Positions 18,493 to 60,945 of a DNA stretch of 64,000 bases are shown here, in pieces. The position numbers and the translations under genes are program-made. Location of the stretch: positions 2,842,130 to 2,906,129 of the forward strand of contig OZ251506.1 in NCBI GenBank assembly GCA_965242835.1, in the 5' to 3' direction. Source of the DNA: Vicinamibacterales bacterium (lineage in GTDB: Bacteria; Acidobacteriota; Vicinamibacteria; Vicinamibacterales; UBA8438). The notes under the pieces were generated by a model, which saw nothing but the letters and a program-made list of their open reading frames with translations, did not search any database and had not been told where the DNA came from. Positions within the stretch are counted from its first letter, which is position 1. Every line of letters starts with the position of its first letter.

Positions 18493-19650
18493 CTATCGGG
18501 TCTGTCGGTGCGCCGCCAGCTTGCTTCCCGCTTCCAGAACGAACGTCGTCAGCGACGGTATGCCGGCGCTCCAGGCGATGGGCGGCATTTGTCCCGGCGG
18601 GTCCCAGACGTAGCCCAGGCGGTTCAGGGCCTTGAGCGCGAGGTTGCGAGAGTCCGCATCTTCGATGCCGGTCCTTGCGAGCGCGTCGTCCAGCTCGTGC
18701 TCCGGTACGGCGGCGTCCGGACCATCCTGAAAGAGAGGGGCGACGGCCATGGCGGCCGCGAGCAGTCCGCCGTCGCGCAGTTCCTTGTATCGGATCTGAT
18801 AGTAGTCGGCCATGCGGGCCGCCACGCCGGGCCGCGACGCGTCGACGGCGGCCATCGTGATGGTGGTCTCGCCCGTGGCCCCATGGTGCCGCCACAGCGC
18901 ATCGCCCCAAAGCTGGATGAAGTACGAGTAGCGCTGGCCGTGTTCGACGACGGCCGTCAGGGCGCACTCGTCGATGGCGACGCCCTGTTCCTCCAGCGGC
19001 TTGGCCAGTGCTTCCCGGGCGGCGGGGGCGTCGAGGAGGCCGACGCCCAGCAAACCCTCGCCCAGCCGCGACCAGAACGACGCTTCCATCCGGCTCAGGC
19101 GATCCGGCAGCCCCGGCGTGCCGGCCAGCACCAGCAGGAACGGCGCGGCGGCGCGAACCTGCTGGCTGGCGTTGAGCAACGCGCGGCCGACGCCGCTCTC
19201 CAGCGTGTGCGCTTCGTCTAGCAGCACGGCCAGCGGCCTTCGGCGGCAGCGCGCCGTCAAGGCCCGCACGAGGTCCCGGTTCACGGCGCCGTCGGTTTGC
19301 CACTCGGCAGAGGCCATCGACGCCACGCCGACCTTGCGCGGCAGCCATCGGGCGATGCCCCGTCTCGGCGCCAGCGCGTCCGCGAGGGCCTGGTGGCTGG
19401 AGATGCGATCCGGCGTCAGAAACACGACGTCCACCGACGCCTCGTTGCAAACGCCCTGGAACCAGTTCAGCAGCACGGTCTTGCCGTTTCCGCGCGGACC
19501 CAGCAGGACGACGTTGTGGGGGGGCGCGGTCCCGGCGGCAAGGTCCGCGAGGCAGCGCGACAGCACCGCTTGCTGGACCTCGCGCCCGGCGAGCGTGGGC
19601 GGCGGCGCGCCGTCGCCGGGCCGGAAGAGGCGCGGCGCGATCGTGCTCAT
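18493..19650 (-). CDS. AAA+ ATPase (Orc1/Cdc6-like / AAA_16-like) with C-terminal wHTH-like tail; paralog of 59767..60945
   Basis: LAGRE...L, Walker A LLGPRGNGKTVLL, Walker B LAVLLDEAH, LVLAGTPGL, C-terminal LNRLGYVWDPPGQMPPIAWSAGIPSL. Roughly half of positions are identical by eye to the second copy over the full length. Confidence 0.8.
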   Translation of the reverse strand: MSTIAPRLFRPGDGAPPPTLAGREVQQAVLSRCLADLAAGTAPPHNVVLLGPRGNGKTVLLNWFQGVCNEASVDVVFLTPDRISSHQALADALAPRRGIARWLPRKVGVASMASAEWQTDGAVNRDLVRALTARCRRRPLAVLLDEAHTLESGVGRALLNASQQVRAAAPFLLVLAGTPGLPDRLSRMEASFWSRLGEGLLGVGLLDAPAAREALAKPLEEQGVAIDECALTAVVEHGQRYSYFIQLWGDALWRHHGATGETTITMAAVDASRPGVAARMADYYQIRYKELRDGGLLAAAMAVAPLFQDGPDAAVPEHELDDALARTGIEDADSRNLALKALNRLGYVWDPPGQMPPIAWSAGIPSLTTFVLEAGSKLAAHRQTR

Positions 19651-40567: not shown

Positions 40568-40601
40568 CGGACCGTCGCGGGGCGTCGGCGCGCGGCCTCG
40601 G

Positions 40602-40907
40602 TCAGGCGCTCCAGTCGAGCAGGCGGAGCACGGCGACGATCAGCCCGCCCACGGCGAGCATGCGCCACGTCAGATCGGCGCGAAGCTCGGCGAGCCCGGC
40701 CCTGAACTGATCGGGGCTCACGTGCTCGCCGTGCTCGGCGGCCTGCCGGACGGCGTTGGCGATGGCTTCGGCCTGCGCGGGCGTGAGGTCGGCGTCGGTC
40801 AACGCGCGGGCGACAGCGAGGGTGTCGAACAATCGGGCGCCTCCCCCCTGCCGGCCGGAACTGCCGCGGCCGGTCGTGTCGTGTCTTGCGGCGGGCACTT
40901 CACTCAC
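40602..40907 (-). CDS. DUF1640-like small coiled-coil protein with C-terminal TM anchor
   Basis: LFDTLAVARALTDADLTPAQAEAIANAV...LRADLTWRMLAVGGLIVAVLRLL. A partial paralog lies at 50509..50682. Confidence 0.65.
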   Translation of the reverse strand: MSEVPAARHDTTGRGSSGRQGGGARLFDTLAVARALTDADLTPAQAEAIANAVRQAAEHGEHVSPDQFRAGLAELRADLTWRMLAVGGLIVAVLRLLDWSA

Positions 40908-41320: not shown

Positions 41321-41977
41321 TCAGCGGACTCGGGGAGGCGGAGGAAAGCCGTTGGTGTACACCGACTCGTAGCGGATGCCGGCGCCGCCGGCGTCCAGGA
41401 AGCGCAGCGACTGCTGGAACAGTTCCGGCCCCGGCCGGCCCGCGGGCGCCGTCGCCTCGAGGACGTACAGGCGGTTCTCGTGCATGTAGACGGCCGCGAA
41501 CGTGCGGGAGCCGTCCGCGTTGGTGAGCTGCAGGTGGCGTCCCTCGACGAGATCGACGAAGTTCCAGCCGAAGAACGTCGGCCTCGCGCCCCGCCGCAGG
41601 AAGCGCCAGACCGCGTACTCCGGGGCGCCGCGCACGTCGACGATCCACGACCCGACGCCCGTGTAGGACGCGCCCGTGCAGCCGGTGTGCGCGTCGGGAG
41701 GGCAGTTCCGCGCGCGCTCCGCATGGATCCGCTCGGCGTCCGTGTAGTCGGCCACGGTCACCGAGTAGCGGATCGGGCCGTCCTCGCAGGCGTGGATCCG
41801 GGCCGGGAACTCGGCCTCGTACTCCGACGTCCAGGTGGTCTCCTCCACGGACGGTTCGCAGGGCAGGTTGACGCTGAAGAAGTCCGCCCGGCTGGCGTGC
41901 TCCGTCCAGCCCTGGGTGAAGAGCGGCCCCGGTGCTCCGAGGAGCAACAGCGCCGGAACGAGTCGCATCGGACGCAC
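41321..41977 (-). CDS. Hypothetical secreted protein (218 aa)
   Basis: Signal peptide MRLVPALLLLGAPGPLFTQG; balanced composition with four Cys. Its stop abuts the start of the next gene. Confidence 0.65.
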   Translation of the reverse strand: MRPMRLVPALLLLGAPGPLFTQGWTEHASRADFFSVNLPCEPSVEETTWTSEYEAEFPARIHACEDGPIRYSVTVADYTDAERIHAERARNCPPDAHTGCTGASYTGVGSWIVDVRGAPEYAVWRFLRRGARPTFFGWNFVDLVEGRHLQLTNADGSRTFAAVYMHENRLYVLEATAPAGRPGPELFQQSLRFLDAGGAGIRYESVYTNGFPPPPRVR

Positions 41978-42046
41978 GGCTTCACCTCCGTTCGACAGCC
42001 GCCGGCGTGTCCGCCCGCGCCGCGTTCGCCGGAAGGCGGTGAACGG

Positions 42047-42587
42047 TCACTCTCCGACGTGCGGCCGGAGGCGCGCGTGGAAGTCCCGCTCGCTGGCGCA
42101 GGCGAGCGCCGCGGCGAAGACGACGCGGCCGGGCACGCCGTCCGGGATGCCGGTGATCGAGTCCACCGAACAGGGGATGCCCCGCGCCCGCAGCACGTCG
42201 CGCACCGCCTCCGCCCGGCCTTCCGCCCGGCCCTTCGCCTCGCCCTCCGCGCGGCTCTGGTCCCGTAGCGAATACAGCAAGGGATCGTCGTCCGGCCCCC
42301 GTGCCGTCCCGTTCGCCCAGCGTCCGGCCCAGGTGCTCCAGACGCTGGGCGGGACTCTCGTGGGCCGCGGTGGTCGGCGAGCGGACCTGCCAGGCGGTCT
42401 CGGTCTCGGCGTCCCAGACCTCCAGCCGCCCCTCGTAGCGGTGGTACTCGCCGCGCGTCAGGGGAAACGCCTCGCAGCCGGCGAACTCCATCTCGGACAG
42501 CGGCGGCATCGGCACGGCGGCCGGCGCCCTGTCCGGCTTGCGCTTCGCGGGCGCGACCGATACGGGCGTCCAGGGCGTGAAGGCCAT
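42047..42587 (-). CDS. Small protein with Uma2-like N-terminal segment and DUF4351-like (EGEAKGRAEGRAEA) C-terminus; split by a C5-run frameshift at 42296-42300
   Basis: ORF 41982..42587 is sensible up to ...LGERDGTG; ORF 42047..42280 and its upstream frame continue PDDDPLLYSLRDQSRAEGEAKGRAEGRAEAVRDVLRARGIP. TATAAT (42598-42593) lies 5 nt before the ATG. Confidence 0.5.
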
Positions 42588-42799
42588 ACCGCATTATAGG
42601 CCGCGGCATCCGCGGAGCAACCGATGTCGATCGGAGCGGGCGGTGATCGTCGACGGCCCCGGCCGGGAGGTCATCGCCGCGAGCGATGCCGGCATCGCGG
42701 CGCGTTGCCGCGGGCGCAGGCCGGGGATGCGGTTCCTTCGGCATGGCGGCGTGGTCCGGGTGCGGCCCGTTCGCGTGGCGCTCACGGGTCGAGGCCGCC

Positions 42800-44486
42800 G
42801 ACGTCGAAGAACGCGGCGTCCGCCGGCCTCGCCCTTGCGGCCCATCCGGTTCGGCGTCGCCGCGCGCCCGACCCACAGGGCGATCTCGAACGGCCACTCG
42901 CCCAGGCGCTCCGGCGCCCGTTCGCGTTCCAGCTCCAGGGCGCAGACCAGCGCGGCGGCCCGGCCGAGCTGATCGAGCGTCAGCAACCGCAACGTGTAGC
43001 GCATCAGCACCGACAAGCCCCGGCCGGCGTCGTCGGGACAGCGCAGGCGGCGGAGCGCGAGCGTGAAGGCCGCGAGTCCCAGATAGGCTTCCGTCTTGCC
43101 GCCGCCGGTGGGGAAGAACAGCGGGTCGACGACGTCGCGTTCGGGGTGCGCGGGGTCGGCGACGCCGCGCAGGTTCATCAGGACGTAGGCGAGCTGGAAC
43201 GGACGCCACGCCGGGGCGGCGACCGCGTGCGGCGGCCGCCCCTGCTCCTGCGCCCGCCGCCGGCGCGCGGCGGCGGCCAGCGCCCGGTTGGCGACGCGGA
43301 ACGCTTCGAGCACGTCCGGTTCGGCCAGCAGATCGATACCGGCCCGGATGCGGTCCGCGGCGGCGCCCGCCCGCCGCGCCAGCTCGTCGGCGACCTGCCG
43401 GCGGCGGCCGGCGAAGGCCGCCGCGGCCCGTTCCTGCTCCGCGACCCAGCCGCGGTACCGCTCCACCAGCGGTTCGAGGCGCGCTCTCGCGGCCCCGGCG
43501 CCATCGAGGCCGCCGAGCGCCTCCATCCCGAACTCCACGCCCTCGATGGGCGACGGCTCGACCCGCGGCACGCCCGCTTGCGGCATCCATTCGGTGCGGA
43601 CGCGGCGGCACGCGCCGTCGACGAGGTCGGCGCAGGTCGAGACGTTGTGGCCGACCGCGTACTCGGCGGCGTCGCGGTGATGCAGGTCGGCCAGGCGTTC
43701 GTCCCAGTCCGCGCTGTCCAGGCCGGTCAGGTCGCGGCGCGGCATCAGCGGGCGATCCGCCTCGACGCGCATCTCGACCTGGAACGCGAACGCGACGTCC
43801 TGCTCTTCGTCGTCGGAAGCCGGCGCCCGGCGGTTCACCGTGAACAGCGAGACCGCCCGGGCCTCCCGGAATCCTTCGAGCGTCCGCACCCGCGTCGGCC
43901 GCACGAGGCAGGCCACGGCGAGGCCGTCCGGCAGTGGGAACGAGGTCGACCGGCCGGCGGGGACGGCATCGAGGTCGACGGCCACGGCGCCCGCGCCGGG
44001 TCTGCGCCTCCAGGGCGCGAGGCGGCGCGAACGCCGGGCGCCGGACGCCACGACACGGCGACGTCAAGGCGCCGGGTCTCCGCGTCCGCCAGGATGCCGA
44101 GGCCCATCGACGACGGCAGGAAGCGCCGCTTGCGGCTGCCGCGATCCGGCGCGCCCGAATCGTCGCCGCCGTGGACCGGCTCGGCCGGCTCGTCGAGTTC
44201 CTCCTCGCTGTCCTGCGCCCGCTGCTCTTCCGGCGCGCCGCTCGGGACCAGAAAACCGGTCAGATACCACCGCGACGGCGCCTGCGGCAGGCGCTCGCGC
44301 TGCAGGGCCGCGTCGTCGGGCCGCGGGCCGAGCAGATCGATCCGCAGGGCGTCGCACAGGTAGCGCCGCACCGAGGCGCCGTCGGGCGGCGGGTTCGCGG
44401 AGGCCCGGGCGCGACCGGTATTCCGACGACCGCATCAGCCGCACCGAGGCGCCGTCGGGCGGCGGGTTCGCGGAGAGAGGGGGCAT
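42800..44486 (-). pseudogene. SF2 helicase remnant, DISARM DrmA-like (N-terminal region + Walker A only); 5-prime duplication, at least one frameshift, 3-prime truncated
   Basis: MPPLSANPPPDGASVR / RRYLCDALRIDLLGP...WYLTGFLVP...SSMGLGILAD (ORF 43835..44371), then the frame of ORF 42594..44051: AVSLFTVNRR, FFPTGGGKTEAYLGLAAF, MRYTLRLLTLDQL, EIALWVGRAATPN. Sense is lost near 42.8 kb. The lower boundary is approximate. Confidence 0.55.
44365..44475. repeat. Perfect 38-bp direct repeat (44365-44402 and 44438-44475), period 73 bp, inside the 5-prime end of the DrmA-like gene
   Basis: gccgcaccgaggcgccgtcgggcggcgggttcgcggag occurs twice. The 73-bp offset shifts the frame and puts a TGA after the first copy. 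Confidence 0.95.
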
Positions 44487-44659
44487 GATGGCGTCCGGTT
44501 TCCGCGCGCGGAAGCGCCCGGCGCCGACGCGCGTCGCGGGCAACGATACCGCAAGCGGCGCGGGCTGTTGAGGGGTCGGTCGACCGGCGGAGTCGCAAGG
44601 CGGCGATTCACGGCAGCCGGCGGGAGGGGATGTAGAATGAAGGGCCGGGAGCGAGAATC

Positions 44660-45118
44660 ATGACGACTGCAACGAGCAGGGAGCCGCGGCTGGCCGCCGA
44701 ACAGATTCTCTGGCTGCGGCGCGGGACGGAAACGACGCCGATGCACGTCCTGAAGCTCGTGTACATCAGCCACGGATGGACGCTCGGGCTGTACGGGCGA
44801 TCGCTCATCAACGAGCCGGCCGAAGCGTGGCGCTACGGCCCGGTGGTGCCCAGCGTCTACCACCGCTACAAGTCGTTCCGCGGAGACGCCATCACGACGG
44901 AGCCGGTGGACCGGTCGGACGCGTTCGACGACGAGCAGCGCGACGTCATCGAGCAGGTTCACGAGGTCTACGGCGACTTCACGGCCCTGCAGCTGTCCGC
45001 CCTCACGCACAAGCCGGGCACCCCCTGGGACGTCACCTACCGGGAATACGGCGCGGGCGTGATCATCCCGAACGAGTTGATCCGGGACTACTACGAGCGT
45101 CTGGCGGAGCAGGCGTGA
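44660..45118 (+). CDS. Panacea-domain (DUF4065, SocA/GepA-like) protein, putative PanA-type antitoxin
   Basis: MHVLKLVYISHGWTLGLYGRSLINEPAEAWRYGPVVPSVYHRYKSF is the DUF4065 core as I remember it; 152 aa. Confidence 0.85.
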   Translation: MTTATSREPRLAAEQILWLRRGTETTPMHVLKLVYISHGWTLGLYGRSLINEPAEAWRYGPVVPSVYHRYKSFRGDAITTEPVDRSDAFDDEQRDVIEQVHEVYGDFTALQLSALTHKPGTPWDVTYREYGAGVIIPNELIRDYYERLAEQA

Positions 45119-45393
45119 CGGCCCGCCGGGGCACGGTGGCCCGCGAACCGACGCCGGAGCCGCGGGCAGCCGCGGCGATCGCCGAGTTGAAGACGCTGAT
45201 CGGCGGCCAACGGGAGGCCACCGGCGACCTTCGCGAGCGCGTGAAGGGGCTGGAGTCCGAGTCGAAGCACTACGCGACCAAGGCCGATCTCGCCAACGTC
45301 AAGGTCTGGGCGATGAGCGGCGTCGTCGCCGCGCTTCTGTCGCTCCTCGTCGCTTTGGGCGTCGCGTTCGTCCGCCTGACCGTCGGCCCCTGA
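45115..45393 (+). CDS. Small coiled-coil protein with C-terminal TM helix (92 aa), GTGA-overlapped with the Panacea gene; candidate membrane toxin
   Basis: GTG 45115 overlaps TGA 45116-45118. ...IAELKTLIGGQREATGDLRERVKGLESESKHYATKADLANVKVWAMSGVVAALLSLLVALGVAFVRL. Architecture resembles DUF1640/XhlA-type proteins. Confidence 0.55.
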   Translation: MTARRGTVAREPTPEPRAAAAIAELKTLIGGQREATGDLRERVKGLESESKHYATKADLANVKVWAMSGVVAALLSLLVALGVAFVRLTVGP

Positions 45394-45579
45394 CGTCGCC
45401 TTGATCGGAACTCCTCGCCGCGGACCCCCGCCGAGCGACGCGGACGTCCGAGTCGATGGAACGCATTTACAAGGGGTCGATGCGGTGACGGTCGACTGCG
45501 AAACGCCAGAGGGTCGGATGCCCGGCGAAGAGCCGAAGCGGGTCCGGCGCGGTGACGATCCATGTTGGGAACGTTCTAC

Positions 45580-45607
45580 TTGACACGAAAACGGGACCTG
45601 CTATATT
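45580..45607 (+). promoter_or_regulatory. Sigma70-like promoter for higB: TTGACA - 16 nt - TATATT, with the ATG 6 nt after the -10 (leaderless geometry)
   Basis: TTGACA 45580-45585, TATATT 45602-45607, ATG 45614. Lies in a visibly AT-richer 220-bp intergenic region. Confidence 0.55.
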
Positions 45608-45613
45608 TTCGGA

Positions 45614-45907
45614 ATGCGGGTCATCGCGAAGAGGCCGCTCCGCGCATTATGGGAGCGCCATCCGGCAGCCAGGGAGCCGTTGCGCGCCTGGCTCCGGGAG
45701 GTTGAACGAGCGGACTGGGATACGCCGGCCGCGGTGAAGGCGCGGTACCCCGCGGCCAGCATCGTCGGCGGCGGCCGCGTGGTGTTCAACGTCAAGGGCA
45801 ACGCCTACCGGCTGGTGGTGAGGATCCGGTACGAGCTCCGCATCGTCTACGTGCGGTTCGTGGGCACGCACGCGGAGTACGACGCCGTGGACGTCGAGGA
45901 GGTGTGA
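45614..45907 (+). CDS. higB: Type II toxin HigB (HigB_toxin / RelE-fold mRNA interferase family)
   Basis: MRVIAKRPLRALWERHP..A...L.AW...V..A.W..P..VK..YP.AS.VGGGRVVFNVKGNAYRLVVRIRY....VYVRFVGTHAEYD matches the family pattern almost position for position. Confidence 0.9.
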   Translation: MRVIAKRPLRALWERHPAAREPLRAWLREVERADWDTPAAVKARYPAASIVGGGRVVFNVKGNAYRLVVRIRYELRIVYVRFVGTHAEYDAVDVEEV

Positions 45908-45909
45908 AG

Positions 45910-47121
45910 ATGGCCGACATCCGCCCGGTTCGGACCGAAGCCGACTACGAGACCGCCCTCGCCCGGATCGACGAGATCATGGACGCCGATCCCGACAGCC
46001 CCGACGCCCGGGAGCTCGACGTGCTGGTCGACCTCGTCGAGCTGTACGAGAGCAGGCACGAGCCGATGGGGCATCCCGACCCGGTGTCGGCGATCGAGTT
46101 CCGCATGGATCAGGCGGGGCTGAAGCGGCGCGACCTGATCCCGTTCCTCGGAAGCCGCGCGAAGGTTTCCGAAGTCCTGTCCGGGAAGCGCGCGATCACC
46201 ATGCCGATGGCGCGCGCGCTCCACGAGCACCTTGGGATTCCGGCCGACGTCCTTCTGCGCCAGTCCGGAAAAACACCGCGGGACGGGTCGGCGGACGTCG
46301 AATGGACCCGGTTTCCGCTCGAGGCGCTTGCGAAGCGCGGCTGGATTCCGGCCGTTCCCGACCTGGCGGCCCGGGCCGAACAGCTCGTCGGGGGGCTGAT
46401 CGAGCAGGCCGGCGGCCAGCGCGTGGCCGATGCCGCGCTTTACCGCAAGACCGACACCCTGCGCGCGAACGCCAAGACGGATCCATACGCGCTCCAGGCG
46501 TGGTGCTGGCAGGCGTTGGCGGAGGCGGCCGAAAGGCGGCCGGACGTCGACTACGCGCCCGGAACCGTGACGCTCGACTTCCTGCGGCAGGTCGCCCGGC
46601 TGAGCTGCTCGCCGGACGGACCGAAGCGGGCGCGGGAATTCCTGCACGGCAACGGCATACCCTTCGTCATCGTCGAGCACCTCCCGAAGACCTATCTCGA
46701 CGGCGCGGCGCTCCGTCTCGGCGACGGCCGGCCGGTGGTCGCGCTGACCTTGCGCCACGACCGGCTCGACAACTTCTGGTTCTGCCTGCTGCACGAGCTG
46801 GCCCACGTCGGCCGGCACCTGAACGCCGGAGACGATCAGGTGTTCGTCGACGACCTGTCCTTGCGCCGCCTCGAGGGCGGACGCCAGGACCCGCGGGAGA
46901 AGCAGGCCGACGAATGGGCCGAGGAAGCGCTCATCCCGCGCGAGGCGTGGGAAACCAGCGACGTCCGGGAACGCCCGACGCCGATGGCCGTGCTGAGTCT
47001 GGCGCAGGCGTTGCAAGTGCATCCGGCGATCGTCGCGGGCCGGGTACGGCACGACACGGGCAACTACCGGCTGCTGTCGCAGTTCGTCGGCACCGGCGAG
47101 GTGCGGCGGCAGTTCTGCTGA
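45910..47121 (+). CDS. Fusion of HigA-type HTH antitoxin (COG5499-like) with an ImmA/IrrE (COG2856) zinc metallopeptidase domain
   Basis: GAGGAGG SD. N-terminus IRPVRTEADYETALARIDEIMDA..P..PDARELDVLVDLVELYE..H.P....DPV.AIEFRMDQAGL...DL...LGSRAKVSEVLSGKR.ITM.MARALHE.LGIPADVLL. C-terminal half has FCLLHELAHVGRH (HEXXH) and E.QADEWAEEALIP. Confidence 0.85.
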   Translation: MADIRPVRTEADYETALARIDEIMDADPDSPDARELDVLVDLVELYESRHEPMGHPDPVSAIEFRMDQAGLKRRDLIPFLGSRAKVSEVLSGKRAITMPMARALHEHLGIPADVLLRQSGKTPRDGSADVEWTRFPLEALAKRGWIPAVPDLAARAEQLVGGLIEQAGGQRVADAALYRKTDTLRANAKTDPYALQAWCWQALAEAAERRPDVDYAPGTVTLDFLRQVARLSCSPDGPKRAREFLHGNGIPFVIVEHLPKTYLDGAALRLGDGRPVVALTLRHDRLDNFWFCLLHELAHVGRHLNAGDDQVFVDDLSLRRLEGGRQDPREKQADEWAEEALIPREAWETSDVRERPTPMAVLSLAQALQVHPAIVAGRVRHDTGNYRLLSQFVGTGEVRRQFC

Positions 47122-47133
47122 AAGGGTCATCCG

Positions 47134-47463
47134 ATGTCATTCTGGTCTGCCGAAACGCTTGCGAAGAAGCTGCCGGATCTGAAGCTGATCGACCCTTACG
47201 ATCCGGATGCCGTCGACTGTGCGGCCTACACGCTACGGGTGGGCAACGAGGTCTATGTCAGTCCGGATCAGAAAATCAAAAATCCCGACCGGCACACCAG
47301 GCGGACGCTGGCTGACAGGGAGTGCTTTTCCATTCCACCAGGGCAATTCGCGTTTCTCCTGACACAGGAAACCGTCGCAGTGCCGGACGACGCGATCGCT
47401 TTCCTGTCGATCAAGGCTCGCACAAAGTTTCGCGGGCTGATCAACATCTCCGGGTTCCATGTC
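47134..47463 (+). pseudogene. dCTP-deaminase/dUTPase-fold gene, 3-prime truncated (first ~110 codons only)
   Basis: YTLRVGNEVYV, IPPGQFAFLLTQETVAVPDDAIAFLSIKARTKFRGLINISGFHV, then the expected DPGF is missing and the frame reads antisense helicase sequence. Visibly lower GC than the surroundings. Starts 12 nt after the higA-immA stop. Confidence 0.7.
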
Positions 47464-47465
47464 TG

Positions 47466-48424
47466 TCCCTCGAGGACCTTCACGCCGCGGCAGAAGCGCT
47501 GCGGATCGAGGATCTCGAGCAGCGCCGAGAAACTGTTGGAATGGCCGTTGTGAGGCGTCGCCGACAGGAACAGCCGGTGCTCGAAACGCGGCGCCACGTC
47601 GCGGACGGCCCGCGTGGTCTGCGAGTCGATGGCGTAGCGGGCGCCGCTCGACGGCGCGGCGTTGTGCGCTTCGTCCAGGATCAGAAGGGACCGCGGGGCG
47701 AAGTCTCCGAGCCAGTCGCGCAGGCCGGCGGCCCAGGTCTCGTCGATCAGCAGCCGGTGCGAGACCAGAAACCGCGAATGCGTCGTCCAGGGGTTGACCG
47801 CGAAGCCCCGCTCGCGCCGCGTGCGCGTCACGTGCGCGCGGTCGAGGATGGTGAACGCGAGGCCGAAGCGCGCCTCCATCTCGTCGCGCCACTGTTCCAG
47901 CATGGCGGGCGGGCACGCCACCACGATCCGGTCGACGCGCCGGCGCAGCAGCAGTTCGCGGGCGATCAGCCTCGCCTCGATCGTCTTGCCGAGGCCGACG
48001 TCGTCGGCGATGAACAGGTTGACGCGCGGCAGGCGCAGCGCAGCGCCTTCCACAGCGGCTCGAGCTGGTAGGCGTCGATGCGGATCCCGGCGCGGAACGG
48101 CGCCTGGAACAGGTTCGGGTCGGTTGCCGTGACGCAGTTCCACGACAGCGTGCGCAGGTAGGCCGCGAACAGCGCCGGCTCGTCGAATTCCTTCCTGGCG
48201 ACGGCGCTCCAGCCGTCGTCGTCCAGGACCCGCGCGTCCAGTTCGTGCTCCCAGAGCACGGCCAGCGGCTGCCCCTGGGCGTCGTCGTCGAGACAGGACA
48301 GGCGGACGAGCGTCGCCTCGCCGTCCGCGCCGGGTGCCGAGACGTCCTCGACGAGGTAGCGGCGCTGTCGGACGAAGGCCACCCGGCCCGGTTCGGGAGC
48401 GATCCGGCGTTCGCGGCGGTTCAC
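47466..48424 (-). pseudogene. SNF2-family helicase remnant (DISARM DrmD-like): N-terminal region + SNF2_N only, 5-bp duplication frameshift, 3-prime truncated
   Basis: GTG 48424: VNRRERRIAPEPGRVAFVRQRRYLVEDV...RIDAYQLEPLWKAL (frame of ORF 47966..48943), then LRLPRVNLFIADDVGLGKTIEA...LLILDEAHNA...LFLSATPHNGHSNSF..LLEILDP (ORF 47268..48143). No helicase C-terminal domain. Confidence 0.75.
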
Positions 48425-48592
48425 GTGCGCGCGGATCGTATTACGACGTTCGGTACGAGGCCGCGCGGGAGCCGTAGCGGACTTCCGGCGAAGGGCGGCG
48501 CCGCTTCCGGTGGGGGCGGCGCCCCGGCTGGCGGAAGCCGCGGCGGACGAGTAGACTGGCGGGGCGGCTCCGGCCCGAACCATGCTCCGCTC

Positions 48593-48732
48593 GGGAACCG
48601 AAAAGATGCGCCCGTTCCTGACCGCGCCCCTGGCCGCCGGGAACCGAAACAGGATGCGCCCTCGCGGCGGGCAGCTTTCCGTCGCCGTCCCGCCGACGCC
48701 CCTGGCCGCCGGGAACCGAAACAGGATGCGCC
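48593..48732 (+). repeat. Triplicated translation-start region of the CMD gene (three in-frame ATGs at 48606, 48654, 48726, each preceded by gggaaccgaaa(c)a(g)g)
   Basis: Perfect 34-bp repeat cccctggccgccgggaaccgaaacaggatgcgcc at 48627-48660 and 48699-48732 (period 72), plus a shorter, diverged copy at 48593-48612. Confidence 0.9.
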
Positions 48733-49994
48733 TGTTCAGGATCGCGGCGCTGGCCGCCGCGCTCGCCGTGGCGGCGCCCCCCGCCGTGCCGCGGGCGGCG
48801 GGGACCGCCGCGGCGCAGGATCCGGTGGTCGCGCCCGCGCCGCCGCGGGTCGCGCCGATCTCCCCGGATGACCCGGCCGCGTGGACCGGCGAGGTGCGCG
48901 CGGGGCTCGCGTCGTTCGGCGGCGACCCGGAGCGGGCGACCAACCTGCTCCGCGCACTGGCCCGGCATCCCCCCGCGCTGCGCGGCCTCGGACCGCTCGC
49001 CGCCTACCTGCGCCGGCGCACCATGGTTCCGGCCGTGGACCAGCTCCTGATGGGGCTGCGCGCCGCCTGGCTGTGCCGTTCCGAGGCGACGTGGGCGGAG
49101 CTGGCCGCCGAGGCGCGCGGCTTCGGACTCGGGGACGCCGACCTGCGCCGGGTGGCGGAAGGGCCGGACGCCGGGTGGGGGCCGTGGGACGGCCTGATGC
49201 TGCGCGCGATGGACGAGCTGCACCGCGACGCGTTCCTGAGCGACGCCTCCTGGGACGAGCTGGCGACGCGCTACAACGCGCCGCAGCTCGTCGACACGAT
49301 CTTCGGCGGCGCGGAGTTCGTCCTGCTGGCGACGCTGGCCAACGCCCTCGGCGTGCGGCCGGACGAGCGGTTCGCCGACCGCCTGCCGGCCGGCGTCGAG
49401 CGCGCGGCCGGCCCGGCCCGCGCGGCCCCGGCGCGTCTCGGCGCGCCGCGGCTGGACCCGCTGCCGCGCGGCGCCTGGTCCGACGAGGTCCGCGGTCTGC
49501 TCGATCCCGGCGGCGCCGGCCGCCCGGTGTCCGCCTTCGACGCCACGCTGGCCCGCCACCCGGCCCTCCTCCGCCCGTGGGCGGTGCGGTCGGCCTACGT
49601 CCGGAGCGGCTCCACGCTGTCCGGCCGCGCGCGCGGGATCCTGATCCTGCGCAGCGCCTGGCTCGGCGGGTCGGAGTCCGGGTGGTCGCGGCACGTGGAG
49701 GCGGCGCGGCGGGCCGGGATGACCGGCGGCGAGATCCGGCGGGTCGCGGCGGGCGCGGATGCGCCGGGCCGGGACCCGTTCGAAGCGGCGCTTCTCCGGG
49801 CGGCGGACGAGCTGCACCGCGGCGCCGCCGTCTCGGACGCCACCTGGGCGGCGCTCGCCGCGCGCTACGGCGCGCCGGCGCTGATCGACGTCGTGATCAC
49901 CGCCGCCGCCGCCCGGGCGTCGGCGATCGTCCTCAACTCGCTCGGCGTGCCGCCGGCGCCCGGAGGTCCGCGCTTTCCCGACGCGCCGCGCTGA
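48726..49994 (+). CDS. Carboxymuconolactone decarboxylase (AhpD-like) family protein, two CMD domains, secreted
   Basis: Third ATG gives the signal peptide MRLFRIAALAAALAVAAPPAVPRAAG. Two similar halves (..LMLRAMDELHRDAFLSD..WDELA..Y....LVD.. and ..ALLRAADELHRGAAVSD..WAALA..Y....LID..). Confidence 0.8.
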   Translation: MRLFRIAALAAALAVAAPPAVPRAAGTAAAQDPVVAPAPPRVAPISPDDPAAWTGEVRAGLASFGGDPERATNLLRALARHPPALRGLGPLAAYLRRRTMVPAVDQLLMGLRAAWLCRSEATWAELAAEARGFGLGDADLRRVAEGPDAGWGPWDGLMLRAMDELHRDAFLSDASWDELATRYNAPQLVDTIFGGAEFVLLATLANALGVRPDERFADRLPAGVERAAGPARAAPARLGAPRLDPLPRGAWSDEVRGLLDPGGAGRPVSAFDATLARHPALLRPWAVRSAYVRSGSTLSGRARGILILRSAWLGGSESGWSRHVEAARRAGMTGGEIRRVAAGADAPGRDPFEAALLRAADELHRGAAVSDATWAALAARYGAPALIDVVITAAAARASAIVLNSLGVPPAPGGPRFPDAPR

Positions 49995-50408: not shown

Positions 50409-50508
50409 GGCTTGGTTCTCTCCCGCCGGCCGTCGATGAAGCGCCCGGGCGCCGGCCCGGCGGGCCCGGTCAGTCGCGTCGGCGGCGGACGCGGCGCGCC
50501 GGCTTCGG

Positions 50509-50682
50509 TCAGCCGCTCCAGTCGAGCAGCCGGAGCACGGCGACGATCGACCCGCCCACGGCGAGCATGCGCCACGTCAGATCGGCGCGGAGCGCGGCCA
50601 GCCCCGCGTTGAACCGGTCGGGAGTCACGTGCTCGCCGTGCTCGGCCGCCTGCCGGACGGCGTTGGTGATGGCGTCGGGCAT
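50509..50682 (-). CDS. Truncated paralog (57 aa) of the DUF1640-like gene at 40602..40907
   Basis: MPDAITNAVRQAAEHGEHVTPDRFNAGLAALRADLTWRMLAVGGSIVAVLRLLDWSG. About 170 bp of high nucleotide identity (most positions by eye) to 40602-40770. TATGCT box 9 nt upstream of the ATG. Confidence 0.5.
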   Translation of the reverse strand: MPDAITNAVRQAAEHGEHVTPDRFNAGLAALRADLTWRMLAVGGSIVAVLRLLDWSG

Positions 50683-53092: not shown

Positions 53093-54808
53093 CTACTCGT
53101 CGAGCGCGAAGACGAAGAGCCCGTTGCCCCCGACCGGACGCTTCTCCTCCGGCATCAGATCGGCCGGGATCATGCCGCCCCAGCTCGCGCCGCCGGCGCC
53201 GACCGGCACCGCCACGTACTGCCGGCCGTCGACCGCGTAGCTGATCGGGAACCCCTGGACGGAGGTCGGCAGCCGCCGGCGCCAGAGGATCTCGCCGTCC
53301 GCGGCGTCGAAGGCGTAGACGTAGCGGTCCCAGCTTCCCGCGAACGCCAGCCCCCCGGCGGTGGTCAGCGCGGCGCTGTTGATCGGCGTCTTGAAGCGCT
53401 GCCGCCAGAGGACCTCGCCGGTGCGGATGCTCATCGACAGCAGCTCGCCGAGCTGCCCCGGGCTGTCCGGGTGGAAGTGGTTGGTGCGCCGCACCGGGCC
53501 GGTCCCGCCGCCCCCTTCGACGCGGTCCACCGGCCCGAAGACGGCGGTCTCGCAGTTGAGGTTGATGGGGATGACGAAGGCCTCGGTCGCCGGGTGGTAC
53601 GCCATCGCCCGCCAGCTCTTGAAGCCGGCGGTGCTCGGGCACCAGAAGATCTCCTCGTAGAGCTCGGGGATCATGCCCTCCCGGTAGGTGACCGCGCCGG
53701 TCTCGGGATCGACGTCGGCGAAGGTCTGGTAGCCGAGGTCGTGCGCGTTGCGGAACGCGCCGGTCTCGACGTCGAGCTCCCAGAGCACCGCCATCTTGCC
53801 CATCGTGAAGACCGAGCGCCGCCCGCCGTAGTCGACCAGGATCCGCTCGAAGACCTCGTCCATGTCGAGGGTCTCGCCGGGGATGTGCTGGAAGTACCAC
53901 TTCATCGCGCCCGTGTCGGGGTCGAGCGCGAGGGTGGAATTCGTGTAGAGCGCGTCGCCGTCGGTGCCGCGCGCCGCCCGCGCCCACGGCTTGGCCTGCG
54001 ACGTGCCGTGGAACAGGGTGCGGGTGACCGGGTCGTAGCTGCCCGGAATCCACGAGTCGCTCCCGGCCCGGAACATGACCGGCAGGTCGCCCCACGAGTC
54101 GCCGCCCCGCTCGCCGGGCAGGGCGATGGTGGAGGTCCGCCAGCGCTCCTCGCCGGTGCGCGCGTCGAGCCCCACGATGTAGCAGGTGTCGTCGCGGTAG
54201 CGCCCGCAGCCGGTCAGCCCCGAGACCACCTTGCCGTCGGCGACGATGGATCCGCTGGAGTACTGGAAACCGGCCCCGCGGCCGACGTCGGCGTCCCAGA
54301 CCGCCTCGCCGGTGCGCGCGTCGAGGGCGATGACGTGCGCGTCGGCGGTGTTCAGATAGACCTTGTCCTCGTAGATGGCGATGTTGCGGTGCGCGCGGCC
54401 GGGCGGCGGGCCGCCGAAGCTGTTCCCCGGCGGCGGCGCGTCGCGGCGGTACTCCCACAGGAAGTCGCCGGTGGCGGCGTCGAGCGCCTGCACGATCTCG
54501 CCGGGATTGGCGATGTACAGCACGCCGTCGTGCACCAGCGGCGTGGTCTGCTGCGAGCCCGGCCCCAGGCTCCAGCTCCACGCCAGCCGCAGCCGGTCCA
54601 CGTTGTCCGTGGTTATCTGGTCGAGGGGGCTGTGGCCCTGGCCGTCGAGCGTGCGCCGCCAGCTCAGCCAGTCGGACGGCGGCGGGTCGCGCAGCGCGTC
54701 GTCGGTGACGGGGGTGTAGTCCTCCCCCTGGGCGCCGGCGGGCGCGGCCGGAGCGGCGCCGAGCGCGGCGGCGAGGACGGACGTTGCGAAGAGGTTGCGG
54801 CGTGTCAT
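53093..54808 (-). CDS. PQQ-dependent dehydrogenase, second paralog, periplasmic
   Basis: Internal start MTRRNLFATSVLAAALGAAPAAPAGAQ. Motifs DDALRDPPPSDWLSWRRTLDGQGHSPL, GVLYIANPG, TGDFLWE, TGEVLWRQ. Confidence 0.9.
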   Translation of the reverse strand: MTRRNLFATSVLAAALGAAPAAPAGAQGEDYTPVTDDALRDPPPSDWLSWRRTLDGQGHSPLDQITTDNVDRLRLAWSWSLGPGSQQTTPLVHDGVLYIANPGEIVQALDAATGDFLWEYRRDAPPPGNSFGGPPPGRAHRNIAIYEDKVYLNTADAHVIALDARTGEAVWDADVGRGAGFQYSSGSIVADGKVVSGLTGCGRYRDDTCYIVGLDARTGEERWRTSTIALPGERGGDSWGDLPVMFRAGSDSWIPGSYDPVTRTLFHGTSQAKPWARAARGTDGDALYTNSTLALDPDTGAMKWYFQHIPGETLDMDEVFERILVDYGGRRSVFTMGKMAVLWELDVETGAFRNAHDLGYQTFADVDPETGAVTYREGMIPELYEEIFWCPSTAGFKSWRAMAYHPATEAFVIPINLNCETAVFGPVDRVEGGGGTGPVRRTNHFHPDSPGQLGELLSMSIRTGEVLWRQRFKTPINSAALTTAGGLAFAGSWDRYVYAFDAADGEILWRRRLPTSVQGFPISYAVDGRQYVAVPVGAGGASWGGMIPADLMPEEKRPVGGNGLFVFALDE

Positions 54809-55870: not shown

Positions 55871-56551
55871 ATGAGCGGCGCTCCCGTCCGGCCGCGGCCG
55901 GCCGCCTCGGTGATGCTGATGCGGACCGGCGCCGGCGGCCTCGAGATCCTCTTTCTGCGGCGCAACCCGACGCTGGCCTTCCACGGCGGCTACTGGGTGT
56001 TCCCCGGCGGGCGGATCGACGACGCGGACGCCGACCCGGAGTCGCCCGGCGACCAGGCCGCGGCGGCGCGCCGGGCCGCCGTGCGCGAGGCCCGCGAGGA
56101 GGCCGGCGTCGACGTCGCGGCCGACGCGCTGGCGTTCGCCGTCCACTGGACGACGCCGGAGGTCAGCCCCATCCGTTTCGCCACCTGGTTCTTCGCCGCG
56201 CCGGCGCCGGCCGCGCGCGTCACGGTGGACGGCGGCGAGATCCACGCCCACCGCTGGCTGCCCCCGGCCGAGGCTCTCGCGCGGCAGCGGGCCGGCGAGA
56301 TCGCGCTGGCCGCGCCCACCTTCGCCCTGACGACGCGGATGGCGGACTTCGACGACGCGGACGCGGCGCTGGCCGCCGTGGCGGAGTGGCCCGAGGAGCG
56401 GCTGCTCGGCGACCTGCTCGACGTGGAAGGCGGTCAGGTGGCGCTGTACCACCAGGACGCGGCGCACGGCGGCGGCCCGCTGGACCGGCCGGGACCGCGG
56501 CACCGGCTGTGGATGGTGGAGTCGGGCTGGCGCTACGAGCGGGCGTTCTGA
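55871..56551 (+). CDS. NUDIX hydrolase
   Basis: FPGGRIDD...AAVREAREEAGV matches the Nudix box GX5EX7REUXEEXGU. Confidence 0.8.
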   Translation: MSGAPVRPRPAASVMLMRTGAGGLEILFLRRNPTLAFHGGYWVFPGGRIDDADADPESPGDQAAAARRAAVREAREEAGVDVAADALAFAVHWTTPEVSPIRFATWFFAAPAPAARVTVDGGEIHAHRWLPPAEALARQRAGEIALAAPTFALTTRMADFDDADAALAAVAEWPEERLLGDLLDVEGGQVALYHQDAAHGGGPLDRPGPRHRLWMVESGWRYERAF

Positions 56552-56705
56552 CCCGCTCCGCCGCGCGGATTCCCCGGCGGCGGCGACCGAGGTCGGAGGG
56601 CGTCGCGAGCGGTCGTTCCGACCCGCTCTTCCGCGCGGATTCCTCGGCGGCGGCGACCGAGTCGAGGGCGTCGCGAGCGGTCGTTTCGACCCGCGCTCCC
56701 GCTCC
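56546..56705. repeat. About 2.3 tandem copies of a ~69-bp unit starting at the NUDIX stop codon
   Basis: tt(c)(t/c)gacccgctc(t)(c/t)ccgcgcggattcc(c/t)cggcggcggcgaccgag(g)tcg(g)agggcgtcgcgagcggtcg occurs at 56546 and 56616; a partial third copy starts at 56683. Confidence 0.85.
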
Positions 56706-56776
56706 GCGTCCGGCGTCGGTCTCGCAGCGCCGGTTGCGCGCCGCGTCCTCGCGCCGACGGCCTTCGCGTCCGGCGT

Positions 56777-59766: not shown

Positions 59767-60945
59767 TCAGCCCGTGGCCGGCGCGCCGCTCTCTCCGCGG
59801 TCCCGGCCGTGCGCAGCGGCGGCGGTCTGGTCCAGAACGTGCTGCATCAGCGAGGGGATGCCGGGGCTCCAGACCACCGGCGGCAACTGCCCCGGCGGGC
59901 GCCAGACGAAGCCGAGCCGGTTCAGCTCCTCGCGGGCCGCGCGCCGGCCGGAGGCGTCCAGACCGGCGGCGGCCAGCGCGGCGTCGACGTCCCCGTCGGC
60001 GGCGGTGGCGTCCAGGCCGCCCCGGAACGCGGACGCCACGGACAGGGCCGCCGGCAACAGTCCGCCCGCTTCCAGTTCCCGGCGCCGGCTCTCGTAGTAT
60101 TCCGTCACCCGCCGTGCGACGGCCGGGCGGGCCGCGGCGGCATGGACGGCGGTCAGCCGCGTCTCCCCCGTGGCCAGACGCTGGTTCCACAGCGCCTCGC
60201 CCCAGAGCTGGACGAAGTAGGCGTAGCGCTGGCTGTGCTCGATGATCGGGTCGAGCGCGTCGGCGTCGATGCCGACACCCTGTCCGGCGAGCGGGCCGGC
60301 CAGCGCTTCCCGGGCGGCGCCGCCGCTCAGGCGGCCGATGCCGAGCAGGCCGCTGCCCAGACGGTCCCAGAAGGAAGCGTTCATCCTGCCGAGATGCGCC
60401 GGCAGCCCCGGGGTGCCGGCCAGCACCAGCAGGAACGGCGCCCGGGCGCGAACGTCCTGACTGGCGTTCAGCAGGAGCTGGCCGACACCCGGGTCCAGCG
60501 TATGCGCTTCGTCGAGCAGCACGGCCACCGGCTTCCTGCGGCAGCGGGCGGTCAGCCGGTCCGCGAAGCCGTGCGCCGAGACGGAGGACGCCTCCCGTTC
60601 GACCTTGCCCGACCCCGTGACGCCCCATTTCGCAGGCAGCAGCCGGCGGAGGCCGGTGGCGGGCAGCAAGGCATCGAACAGGGCCCGTTCCGTGCGGACC
60701 CGGCTGGGGGCCAGACGGGCCGCGTCGACGCGAACCGCGCCGCAACGGCGTTCGAACCAGTTGAGCAGCGCCGTCTTGCCGTTGCCGCGCGGCCCGACCA
60801 GCACGACGTCGTGCGGCGGCGCCCGGCCGCCGAGCAGGTCCGACAGGCACAGCGACAGCGTCTCCTGCTCCCGCTCGCGCCCGGCCAGCACGGGCGGCGT
60901 GGCGCCGGCGCCGGGGGTGAAGAGCCGCCGCTCCGGCGTATCCAC
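59767..60945 (-). CDS. AAA+ ATPase, paralog of 18493..19650
   Basis: GTG start. LAGREREQETL, Walker A LVGPRGNGKTALL, Walker B VAVLLDEAH, LVLAGTPGL, C-terminal LNRLGFVWRPPGQLPPVVWSPGIPSL. TACACT box 6 nt upstream of the GTG. Confidence 0.8.
   Translation of the reverse strand: MDTPERRLFTPGAGATPPVLAGREREQETLSLCLSDLLGGRAPPHDVVLVGPRGNGKTALLNWFERRCGAVRVDAARLAPSRVRTERALFDALLPATGLRRLLPAKWGVTGSGKVEREASSVSAHGFADRLTARCRRKPVAVLLDEAHTLDPGVGQLLLNASQDVRARAPFLLVLAGTPGLPAHLGRMNASFWDRLGSGLLGIGRLSGGAAREALAGPLAGQGVGIDADALDPIIEHSQRYAYFVQLWGEALWNQRLATGETRLTAVHAAAARPAVARRVTEYYESRRRELEAGGLLPAALSVASAFRGGLDATAADGDVDAALAAAGLDASGRRAAREELNRLGFVWRPPGQLPPVVWSPGIPSLMQHVLDQTAAAAHGRDRGESGAPATG

Follow-up and report, generated by a model that had tools for sequence, protein, structure and literature searches.

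The window analysed here is a stretch of 64,000 nucleotides (nt) from a Vicinamibacterales bacterium (GCA_965242835.1, contig OZ251506.1, positions 2,842,130-2,906,129 of the forward strand), with a GC content of ~73%. Within it, a 6.7-kb island carries the 5' parts of drmD and drmA, two genes of the class-1 DISARM defence system, on the minus strand, and between them a block of plus-strand genes that includes two toxin-antitoxin-like pairs. The locus is probably the wreck of a class-1 DISARM operon, no longer functional, in a chromosomal hot spot of defence and toxin-antitoxin genes. Outside the island, the window holds ordinary chromosomal genes (TonB-dependent receptors, CobN, chorismate synthase, PQQ dehydrogenases). 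The island and its DISARM remnants are as follows (loci of related genomes are cited by L numbers).

41978-48725, variable island of 6.7 kb, between a 218-amino-acid (aa) lipoprotein-like gene (41321-41977, minus strand) and a CMD-family gene (48726-49994, plus strand)
47463-48424, minus strand, drmD remnant from a GTG start at 48424, holding codons 1 to ~315 of ~1020-1100, with SNF2 motif I (DVGLGKT) and ending ...LDPQRFCRGVKVLEGQ
48032-48046, minus strand, 5-nt duplication in drmD (GCGCT GCGCT GCGCC), where the frame shifts at ~codon 127 (three-frame translation)
42819-44486, minus strand, drmA remnant from an ATG at 44486, holding the first ~570-600 of ~1150 codons, with helicase motif I (FPTGGGKTEAYL), ending ...TPNRMGRKGEAG and lacking the Helicase_C half
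44365-44475, minus strand, 73-nt insertion in drmA after codon 16, with an exact 38-nt direct repeat (44365-44402 and 44438-44475) around a 35-nt filler (44403-44437)
44027-44050, minus strand, out-of-frame internal deletion in drmA, with the GDYxPE motif and an acidic linker gone (DNA alignment with L001, L007 and L008)

Both remnants are matched by DISARM models at E-values from 1e-40 to 1e-111 (NCBIfam, PADLOC), in agreement with a preliminary description of the window, made from its letters alone, that had named a DrmA-like and a DrmD-type helicase gene. NCBIfam DISARM_DrmD (NF038317) aligned with the minus-strand readings 47969-48502 (profile positions 2-123, 1.4e-39) and 47271-48143 (positions 119-311 of 1021, 2.1e-97), and PADLOC DrmD gave 3e-42 and 1.2e-96. 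Correspondingly, NCBIfam DISARM_DrmAS (NF038325) aligned with 43838-44371 (positions 2-126, 1.4e-11) and 42597-44051 (positions 148-573 of 1165, 6e-111), both on the minus strand, and PADLOC DrmA gave 5e-84. The next-best families (BrxH, HmaA, DpdE, RapA, ZorD) scored at least 60 orders of magnitude worse than the DISARM models. Because the curated DISARM models far outscore other helicase families, the identification of drmD and drmA is firm. The comparison with non-DISARM helicases that had been proposed earlier thus favoured DISARM: BrxH, DpdE, RapA and ZorD scored far lower; the 25 families listed included no Druantia DruE model.

Neither gene is complete. The drmD remnant reached 328 bits with NF038317 against a cut-off of 610 for full-length DrmD, its match being split by the 5-nt duplication. 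Relative to both close homologs, L009 and L010, drmD has five extra nucleotides (GCGCT), as the preliminary description had noticed from the duplication itself. The remnant is 83-88% identical in aa sequence to the DrmD proteins of L009 and L010, with 88% over its last 193 residues. Homology to these two proteins ends at 47463, at residue 315, and the surviving piece is the 5' ~30% of the gene, rather than the N-terminal half of an SNF2 helicase as first described.

The drmA remnant is 77-82% identical in aa sequence to the drmA product of L001 (tblastn). It reached 372 bits with NF038325 against a cut-off of 950, and covers positions 2-573 of 1165 only, so that one of the two helicase lobes of DrmA is missing. 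Homology to L001, L007 and L008 ends at 42819-42821, directly past TPNRMGRKGEAG, which corresponds to residue 562 of the L008 protein. The surviving piece is the 5' ~50% of drmA; the N-terminal third given originally was an underestimate. The 73-nt insertion, which had been reported as an insertion or duplication, is absent from four drmA homologs, and its deletion in silico restores MPPLSANPPPDGASVRRYLCDALRIDLLGP, which can be aligned with the N-termini of the homologs. The 35-nt filler has no second occurrence in the window. Further downstream, only 20 nt lie between the W codon of VSW (44048) and RRLAPW (44027), and residues 2-122 and 158-562 of L008 DrmA match the window in different frames (tblastn high-scoring pairs). 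The conserved GDYxPE motif and acidic linker, which come after VSW in every homolog, are lost and only these 20 nt remain, so that the lesion is an out-of-frame deletion. The frame change claimed earlier is therefore present, but it does not come from a simple indel (alignment with L001, L007 and L008).

The other parts of a class-1 operon are absent. In tblastn searches of the whole 64-kb window (E <= 0.01), no match was obtained with the C-terminal half of L009 DrmD, with the C-terminal parts of L001 and L008 DrmA, with DrmMI (L009 DrmMI of 1284 aa and the L008 upstream fragment), or with DrmB (DUF1998/MZB) and DrmC (phospholipase D domain) of L001 and L008. A Pfam scan likewise found no Helicase_C (pfam00271) domain. 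The original statement that the methylase, the C-terminal helicase halves, DrmB and DrmC are missing is upheld by these searches.

Class-1 DISARM reportedly consists of drmD, drmMI, drmA, drmB and drmC (Ofir et al., 2018). In the literature, drmD and drmMI precede drmABC in class-1 systems, and a class-1 DISARM of Serratia has been described (bioRxiv 10.1101/2021.12.28.474362). The window resembles such systems in that its remnants fit the NCBIfam equivalog models for DrmD and short DrmA as well as PADLOC DrmD and DrmA. Furthermore, drmD (48424-47463) lies upstream of drmA (44486-42819) on the same minus strand, the order originally assigned to class 1 and the one found in L009, and the nearest relative of drmD stands in a drmD-drmMI-drmA operon. 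It differs from them in that ~30% of drmD and ~50% of drmA are left, both frameshifted, without drmMI, drmB, drmC or either Helicase_C half. Judged from these losses in the sequence, the DISARM of the window would be non-functional and unable to work as DISARM.

Among the matches listed, protein homologues of the drmD and drmA remnants were at most ~1.75 times the query length and represented fragments or split genes; operon contexts were used instead. L009, a 5.94-Mb contig, holds the closest drmD found in full context. Its gene order is the N-terminal part of drmD, an insertion sequence (IS), the C-terminal part of drmD, drmMI, the N-terminal part of drmA, IS66 and the rest of drmA. In L001 and L008, the order is drmA-drmB(MZB)-drmC(phospholipase D). 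The drmD of L010 belongs to the same clade (87% identity) and breaks off after 397 aa; behind it lie a Mu-transposase fragment and a CBASS-like set (L010:10001-16552). Taken together, the IS interruptions in L009 and the truncation in L010 indicate that decay of this DISARM clade is recurrent and proceeds by different routes.

Both loci hold further defence genes. In L009:1-21602, where the elements are DDE_Tnp_1 within drmD and IS66 within drmA, the operon adjoins an nSTAND NTPase gene and SLFN/HATPase_c_4 fragments, forming a dense defence island. The CBASS-like set of L010 comprises E2-CBASS, ThiF and patatin genes, and a gene with helix-turn-helix (HTH) and M78 domains lies 8 kb further on.

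The slot that drmMI occupies in L009 is held in the window by the plus-strand block, which has the following features.

44660-45118, plus strand, intact Panacea-domain (SocA-like antitoxin) gene, Pfam SocA_Panacea 2.2e-19
45115-45393, plus strand, small open reading frame (ORF) of 92 aa, whose GTG overlaps the Panacea stop (GTGA, 45115-45118), with a predicted coiled coil and C-terminal hydrophobic helix
45580-45607, plus strand, promoter-like site upstream of higB (TTGACA, 16 nt, TATATT, TG extension), with 11/12 consensus matches
45614-45907, plus strand, intact higB-like gene (PD-lambda-2 A homolog), whose stop overlaps the higA-immA start, Pfam HigB_toxin 5e-31
45904-47121, plus strand, intact higA-immA (PD-lambda-2 B homolog), an HTH domain fused to an M78/ImmA-IrrE metallopeptidase, with the HELAH motif present
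47134-47462, plus strand, dcd-like (dCTP deaminase fold) remnant, codons 1 to ~110 of 180 (~60%), Pfam DCD 4.6e-10 over profile positions 3-103 of 153
47457-47469, drmD/dcd junction, GGGACAG/ACATGG on the drmD sense strand, with the breakpoint at 47462/47463 (four-way DNA alignment of the window, L009, L010 and L091)

PADLOC, Pfam and the comparison with L091 agree with the preliminary description on these genes, namely a Panacea pair, higB, higA-immA and a truncated dcd-like gene. It had also read them as a toxin-antitoxin cassette that replaced the centre of the operon. The toxin-antitoxin-like pairs bear this out, but a simple cassette does not describe the block, since higB and higA-immA match PD-lambda-2 A and B, and the same pair heads a defence operon in L091 that in the window is cut within dcd.

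The closest relative of the dcd remnant is the intact 180-aa protein of L091, with 84% (BLASTP) or 81% (tblastn) identity, and the gene for it starts 14 bp past a higA-immA that is 89% identical to that of the window. The L091 operon consists of higB/higA-immA, DCD, a 160-aa gene, a ThsB-like TIR gene and Nmad2 (L091:1-2832). At the nucleotide level, the window matches L091 with 85% identity from 46771 up to 47469, where the similarity ends (blastn). At the junction, the window follows drmD on one side and the reverse complement of dcd on the other, with few bases shared, so that the truncated dcd and the truncated drmD are joined tail-to-tail. Since an L091-type operon is thus cut inside dcd at the drmD junction, the replacement is itself a wreck, and a second defence system has been truncated. 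The dcd remnant has a GC content of 0.57 and a GC content at third codon positions (GC3) of 0.72, against a GC3 of 0.90-0.94 in all neighbouring genes and pseudogenes, which suggests a different or more recent origin than that of the preceding higBA-immA pair.

The dcd-like family was also found with TIR, Nmad2, MazG_C and HMUDK_hel genes (L092:3555-8339). In L091:365-2832, the 160-aa protein belongs to no known family, and the TIR protein matches PADLOC ThsB at 6e-61. Apart from TIR, the components of the DCD-x-TIR-Nmad2 set matched no PADLOC model. The DCD-x-TIR-Nmad2(-MazG_C-HMUDK_hel) set may be an undescribed nucleotide-centred defence system.

Components A and B of PD-lambda-2, immediately upstream of dcd, are present at full length. 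PADLOC PD-Lambda-2_A covers the HigB-like protein over profile positions 1-97 of 97 (1.1e-41), and PD-Lambda-2_B covers HigA-ImmA over positions 1-396 of 402 (3.4e-141), in which Pfam recognises HTH_31 and Peptidase_M78. PADLOC capP gave a weak match to HigA-ImmA (4e-5). Across the 6.9-kb region, two promoter-like sites that overlap each other were detected where 0.2 would be expected.

The pair was surveyed in 80 metagenome loci (L011-L090) with full-length higA-immA relatives of 62-73% identity. The higB gene lies directly upstream of higA-immA in 77 of the 80, and always where the contig allows. Across these loci, neither the Panacea gene nor dcd accompanies the pair consistently. Instead, the same-strand genes downstream of it belong to diverse defence functions: CBASS cyclases (seven loci), Mrr (five), PD-T4-6-type kinases (four), ThiF/DUF6791 (four) and TIR. 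Where at least 600 bp of downstream sequence was available (n=57), a same-strand gene follows within 400 bp in 45 loci and within 100 bp in 23. Genes upstream of the pair include integrases, type IV secretion system components, primase and terminase.

In Escherichia coli PD-lambda-2, protein B alone is toxic and A neutralises it; defence also requires a third protein, C, 'related to a P4 antitoxin' (Vassallo et al. 2022, PMC9519451). The window resembles this system in its full-length HigB-like A and HTH-peptidase B genes, which overlap and follow a strong predicted promoter. Unlike PD-lambda-2, the window has no match to the C model, and the next gene is the truncated dcd-like one. The Panacea gene also differs in standing upstream rather than downstream of the pair and in not being conserved with it in the 80 loci. 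PADLOC PD-Lambda-2_C (E <= 0.01) matched none of the scanned window proteins, the Panacea protein included, and neither a Panacea domain nor a C-model match occurred in the 48 downstream and 45 upstream ORFs scanned from the 80 loci. The Panacea gene was rejected as the missing C on both counts: it gave no PADLOC match, and no Panacea gene adjoins the pair in the scanned loci.

The pair was also compared with the CapH/CapP regulators, which are divergent from the defence operon that they regulate (Lau et al. 2022, bioRxiv 10.1101/2022.04.27.489752). Like CapH/CapP, the window has an HTH domain and an ImmA/IrrE-type metallopeptidase preceded by a toxin-like gene and placed beside defence genes; similarly, relatives of the pair lie directly upstream of CBASS cyclase, TIR, Mrr and kinase genes. 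In contrast with CapH/CapP, the pair is co-directional with its cargo, has a HigB-like partner, shows the weak capP similarity given above and converges on drmD. A CapH/CapP-type layout was accordingly rejected: the domains are present, but the orientation differs from the divergent one of Lau et al.

The Panacea gene forms the other toxin-antitoxin-like pair. Its product meets Pfam SocA_Panacea with 70.9 bits against a cut-off of 25.7, and is thus a Panacea antitoxin by that model; NCBIfam SocA_antitoxin matched at 3.5e-22, below the model's cut-off. The 92-aa ORF has a GC3 of 0.92, in line with coding sequence, and matched no family in Pfam or PADLOC. It is a candidate partner toxin of the Panacea protein. 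PanA/PanT pairs, in which the antitoxin has a Panacea domain, are said to have been described by Kurata et al. in 2022. As in these, the Panacea-domain gene of the window is translationally coupled to a small neighbouring gene; unlike in these, the partner is of no recognised toxin family.

Beyond the 3' break of drmA, the left part of the island holds two features.

42588-42818, unassigned spacer of about 220 bp between the drmA break and the Uma2-like gene, with a TATAAT-like box directly upstream of the Uma2-like ATG
42047-42587, minus strand, Uma2-family (PD-(D/E)XK nuclease-like) pseudogene, with ~467 bp that cover the nuclease core deleted at a junction at ~42338-42341

In the spacer, GC content at first, second and third codon positions is flat in all six frames, giving no codon-position signal, and the minus-strand reading 42597-42860 matched no family model. 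The N-terminus of the Uma2-like gene retrieves a family of ~350-aa proteins (phmmer), including P0292 with 82% identity and P0294 with 363 aa. Pfam Uma2 is found on these homologs, and the ORF of the window itself gave no Pfam match. A blastn alignment with L093 falls into two blocks that skip L093 6244-6710, and begins only at 42599. In addition, the frame is disrupted near 42295, where a G5 run contains one G too many. With its core deleted and its frame shifted, the gene lacks an intact PD-(D/E)XK core and is a fourth wreck beside drmD, drmA and dcd. Compared by tblastx with all fetched loci, 41978-42830 and 44487-45620 returned GC-rich noise only.

The site of the island was compared between genomes by scanning species-representative genomes with the CMD-family protein to its right. 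The scan yielded two Vicinamibacterales metagenome-assembled genomes with a syntenic site, L002 and L003. On one side of the CMD gene, both have genes for acyl-CoA synthetase, SDR, DUF6152 and the 218-aa lipoprotein-like protein in common with the window (74-91% aa identity); on the other, L002 also shares YciI, MFS and PQQ dehydrogenase genes. The gap between the lipoprotein-like gene and the CMD gene is 0.4-0.9 kb in these relatives, against 6.7 kb in the window. In L002 it holds an intact Phd/YefM-PIN (vapBC) pair (L002:9083-9807), and in L003 only a PIN toxin (VapC) remnant consisting of residues 54-132, the C-terminal 79 (L003:9538-9858). No trace of vapBC was found in the window. Because the same flanking genes stand only 0.4-0.9 kb apart in two relatives, 41978-48725 is a variable hot spot, and the three genomes with common flanking genes present three different states of it. 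As L003 keeps only a PIN fragment, decay of cargo at the hot spot extends beyond the genome of the window. The right edge of the island was placed at gene level, the N-terminal region of the CMD gene being too divergent for mapping at nucleotide level. No integrase, transposase, tRNA or terminal repeats were found as borders of the island, and the 64-kb window contains no tRNA genes.

It is proposed that the ancestral state was a drmD-drmMI-drmA-drmB-drmC operon on the minus strand. This operon would have lost its middle and its 3' end by illegitimate recombination and would then have gathered small lesions. The 3' part of drmD and drmMI would have given way to 3 kb of plus-strand DNA in two modules, namely the Panacea gene with its coupled small membrane-protein gene, and higB/higA-immA with the 5' part of dcd. 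Similarly, the 3' part of drmA, drmB and drmC would have been replaced by the spacer of about 220 bp and the Uma2-family pseudogene. The operon headed by higBA-immA between the DISARM ends would have been truncated in turn, and one deletion between convergent dcd and drmD would give the 47462/47463 junction. No IS ends or long repeats were found at the break points. As few bases are shared at the breaks and such elements are missing, the events resemble illegitimate deletions or replacements of the microhomology type. Decay has struck at least two defence systems here, and the only intact genes in the island are the two toxin-antitoxin-like pairs. By analogy with E. coli PD-lambda-2, these pairs likely persist because loss of the neutralising partner would harm the cell, and addiction is the likely reason for their survival.

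Several observations weigh against this proposal. An intact DISARM at this chromosomal site was found in no related genome, and the syntenic L002 and L003 carry vapBC or its remnant instead of DISARM. Since both relatives have such cargo at the site, DISARM may never have been complete here. No relatives sharing the Panacea module were present among the fetched loci, although the module had no search of its own, and the left edge of the plus-strand block lies somewhere in 44487-44659, with no boundary mapped by homology. Furthermore, identity to the L009 system is 83-88% for drmD against 68-72% (aa) for drmA; this gap fits a higher conservation of DrmD and does not prove a common origin of the two remnants. 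In-situ turnover of a defence island, as concluded in the preliminary description, is accordingly backed by the remnants, their order and the variable site, but decay at this very site is not proved. The comparison of syntenic loci suggested at the time recovered the same flanks in L002 and L003, but not an intact version of the operon.

An alternative is an imported mosaic, in which the 6.7-kb block or large parts of it arrived by horizontal transfer with the drm fragments already truncated, and no functional DISARM ever stood at the site. The drm fragments could then be hitch-hiking debris beside selfish toxin-antitoxin pairs. In favour of import, both syntenic relatives have unrelated cargo at the site (vapBC or a vapC remnant). 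Island genes have a lower GC content than the flanks, down to 0.57 in dcd; the higB/higA-immA clade travels with integrases, type IV secretion components, primase and terminase in the metagenome loci; and a truncated drmD beside other defence cargo recurs in L010. This alternative has to be taken seriously but is considered unlikely. The drmD and drmA fragments stand in the correct class-1 order and on the correct strand, and their GC3 of 0.92-0.94 equals that of host genes. The absence of a bounding integrase, transposase, tRNA or terminal repeat also argues against import, and the small extra lesions in each fragment suggest continued local decay.

A dead operon at a hot spot is likewise preferred over two explanations that are both very improbable. 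If the locus were an assembly artefact, its junctions would be chimeric joins or collapsed repeats and its frameshifts sequencing errors. The related records are metagenome assemblies with many split genes, and the extra G in the Uma2 G5 run is a typical homopolymer error. However, the genes that border the island on its two sides stand next to each other in two other genomes, so that a chimera would require several precise joins within 6.7 kb. Read errors do not typically produce a duplication of 5 nt, an insertion of 73 nt that contains an exact 38-nt repeat, or the loss of hundreds of bp. Two-sided synteny and the kinds of lesion together make misassembly unlikely. The other explanation, equally improbable, holds that the higB-like gene and the HTH-ImmA fusion were once a DNA-damage-responsive regulator of this DISARM, on the model of CapH-CapP in Nocardia. 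The layout seen now would then have come from rearrangement of such a regulated system rather than from invasion. In Nocardia, Lau et al. (bioRxiv 10.1101/2022.04.27.489752) described a CapH-CapP fusion and a toxin-like (vapC-like) gene upstream of drmD-drmMI-drmA-drmB-drmC, and the protein of the window combines HTH and M78 domains with the weak capP match of 4e-5. In the window, however, the pair is located within the footprint of the operon and is convergent with drmD rather than upstream and divergent, and its own downstream gene is dcd, as in L091. In the 80 related loci, moreover, DISARM genes are absent within 6 kb, apart from two weak SNF2 matches. The pair was rejected as a DISARM regulator on its orientation and on the related loci without DISARM genes.

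Turnover of defence islands and decay of defence systems mediated by IS elements or deletions are general phenomena. The locus conforms to them in being a variable hot spot whose cargo differs per genome, in its truncated and frameshifted defence genes, and in the parallel decay of the drmD clade in L009 and L010. It departs from the general pattern in that its break points are free of IS, integrase and repeat, and in that the survivors are exclusively toxin-antitoxin-like pairs. As a DISARM finding, the locus adds little, being a further decayed example of a system already known. Viewed as a record of turnover, it is cleaner than most, with four wrecks (drmD, drmA, dcd and Uma2) and breaks mapped to a few bases without mobile-element scars. 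This outcome is consistent with retention of addictive modules alongside erosion of defence genes that are costly and not addictive. DISARM, PD-lambda-2 and Panacea pairs are known, as is the flux of defence islands; the locus is a new and well-resolved instance, but no new type of system.

Two side observations are worth pursuing: the pair that heads diverse defence operons, and the DCD-x-TIR-Nmad2 set. Tentatively, and with some doubt, the PD-lambda-2 A/B-type pair could be a portable, self-stabilising front end that heads many unrelated defence operons. If so, the pair would behave as CapH/CapP do, except that it would run in the same direction as its cargo and have a toxin-like partner. 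Being addictive, it would outlive its cargo, and wrecks in which only such pairs survive would be expected. The set of DCD-x-TIR-Nmad2(-MazG_C-HMUDK_hel) genes would then be an undescribed nucleotide-targeting defence system. A testable lead is that the PD-lambda-2 A/B-type pair might serve diverse defence operons as a general head module.

Repeats occur around the island and elsewhere in the window. A 45-nt element, whose 34-nt core (CCCCTGGCCGCCGGGAACCGAAACAGGATGCGCC) is identical in both copies, is present twice (48616-48660 and 48688-48732, 72 nt apart) between the start of drmD and that of the CMD gene; the second copy overlaps the likely CMD ATG, and the element has no further copies in the window. 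A 179-nt direct repeat of 90% identity (40593-40771 and 50500-50678, 9.9 kb apart) brackets the island and four conserved genes. It consists of one full copy (40602-40907, minus strand, weak CCDC90-like match) and one partial copy of a small membrane-protein gene, and neither copy is found at the corresponding positions in L002 or L003. Intergenic short tandem arrays lie near 363-747 (50 nt twice and ~98 nt three times) and at 56526-56711 (~70 nt three times). Longer, diverged repeats of 71-75% identity pair 18866-19165 with 60161-60460 and 15896-16475 with 54137-54713. As the second of these sets joins two PQQ-dependent dehydrogenase genes, the repeats look like paralogous gene segments rather than mobile DNA.

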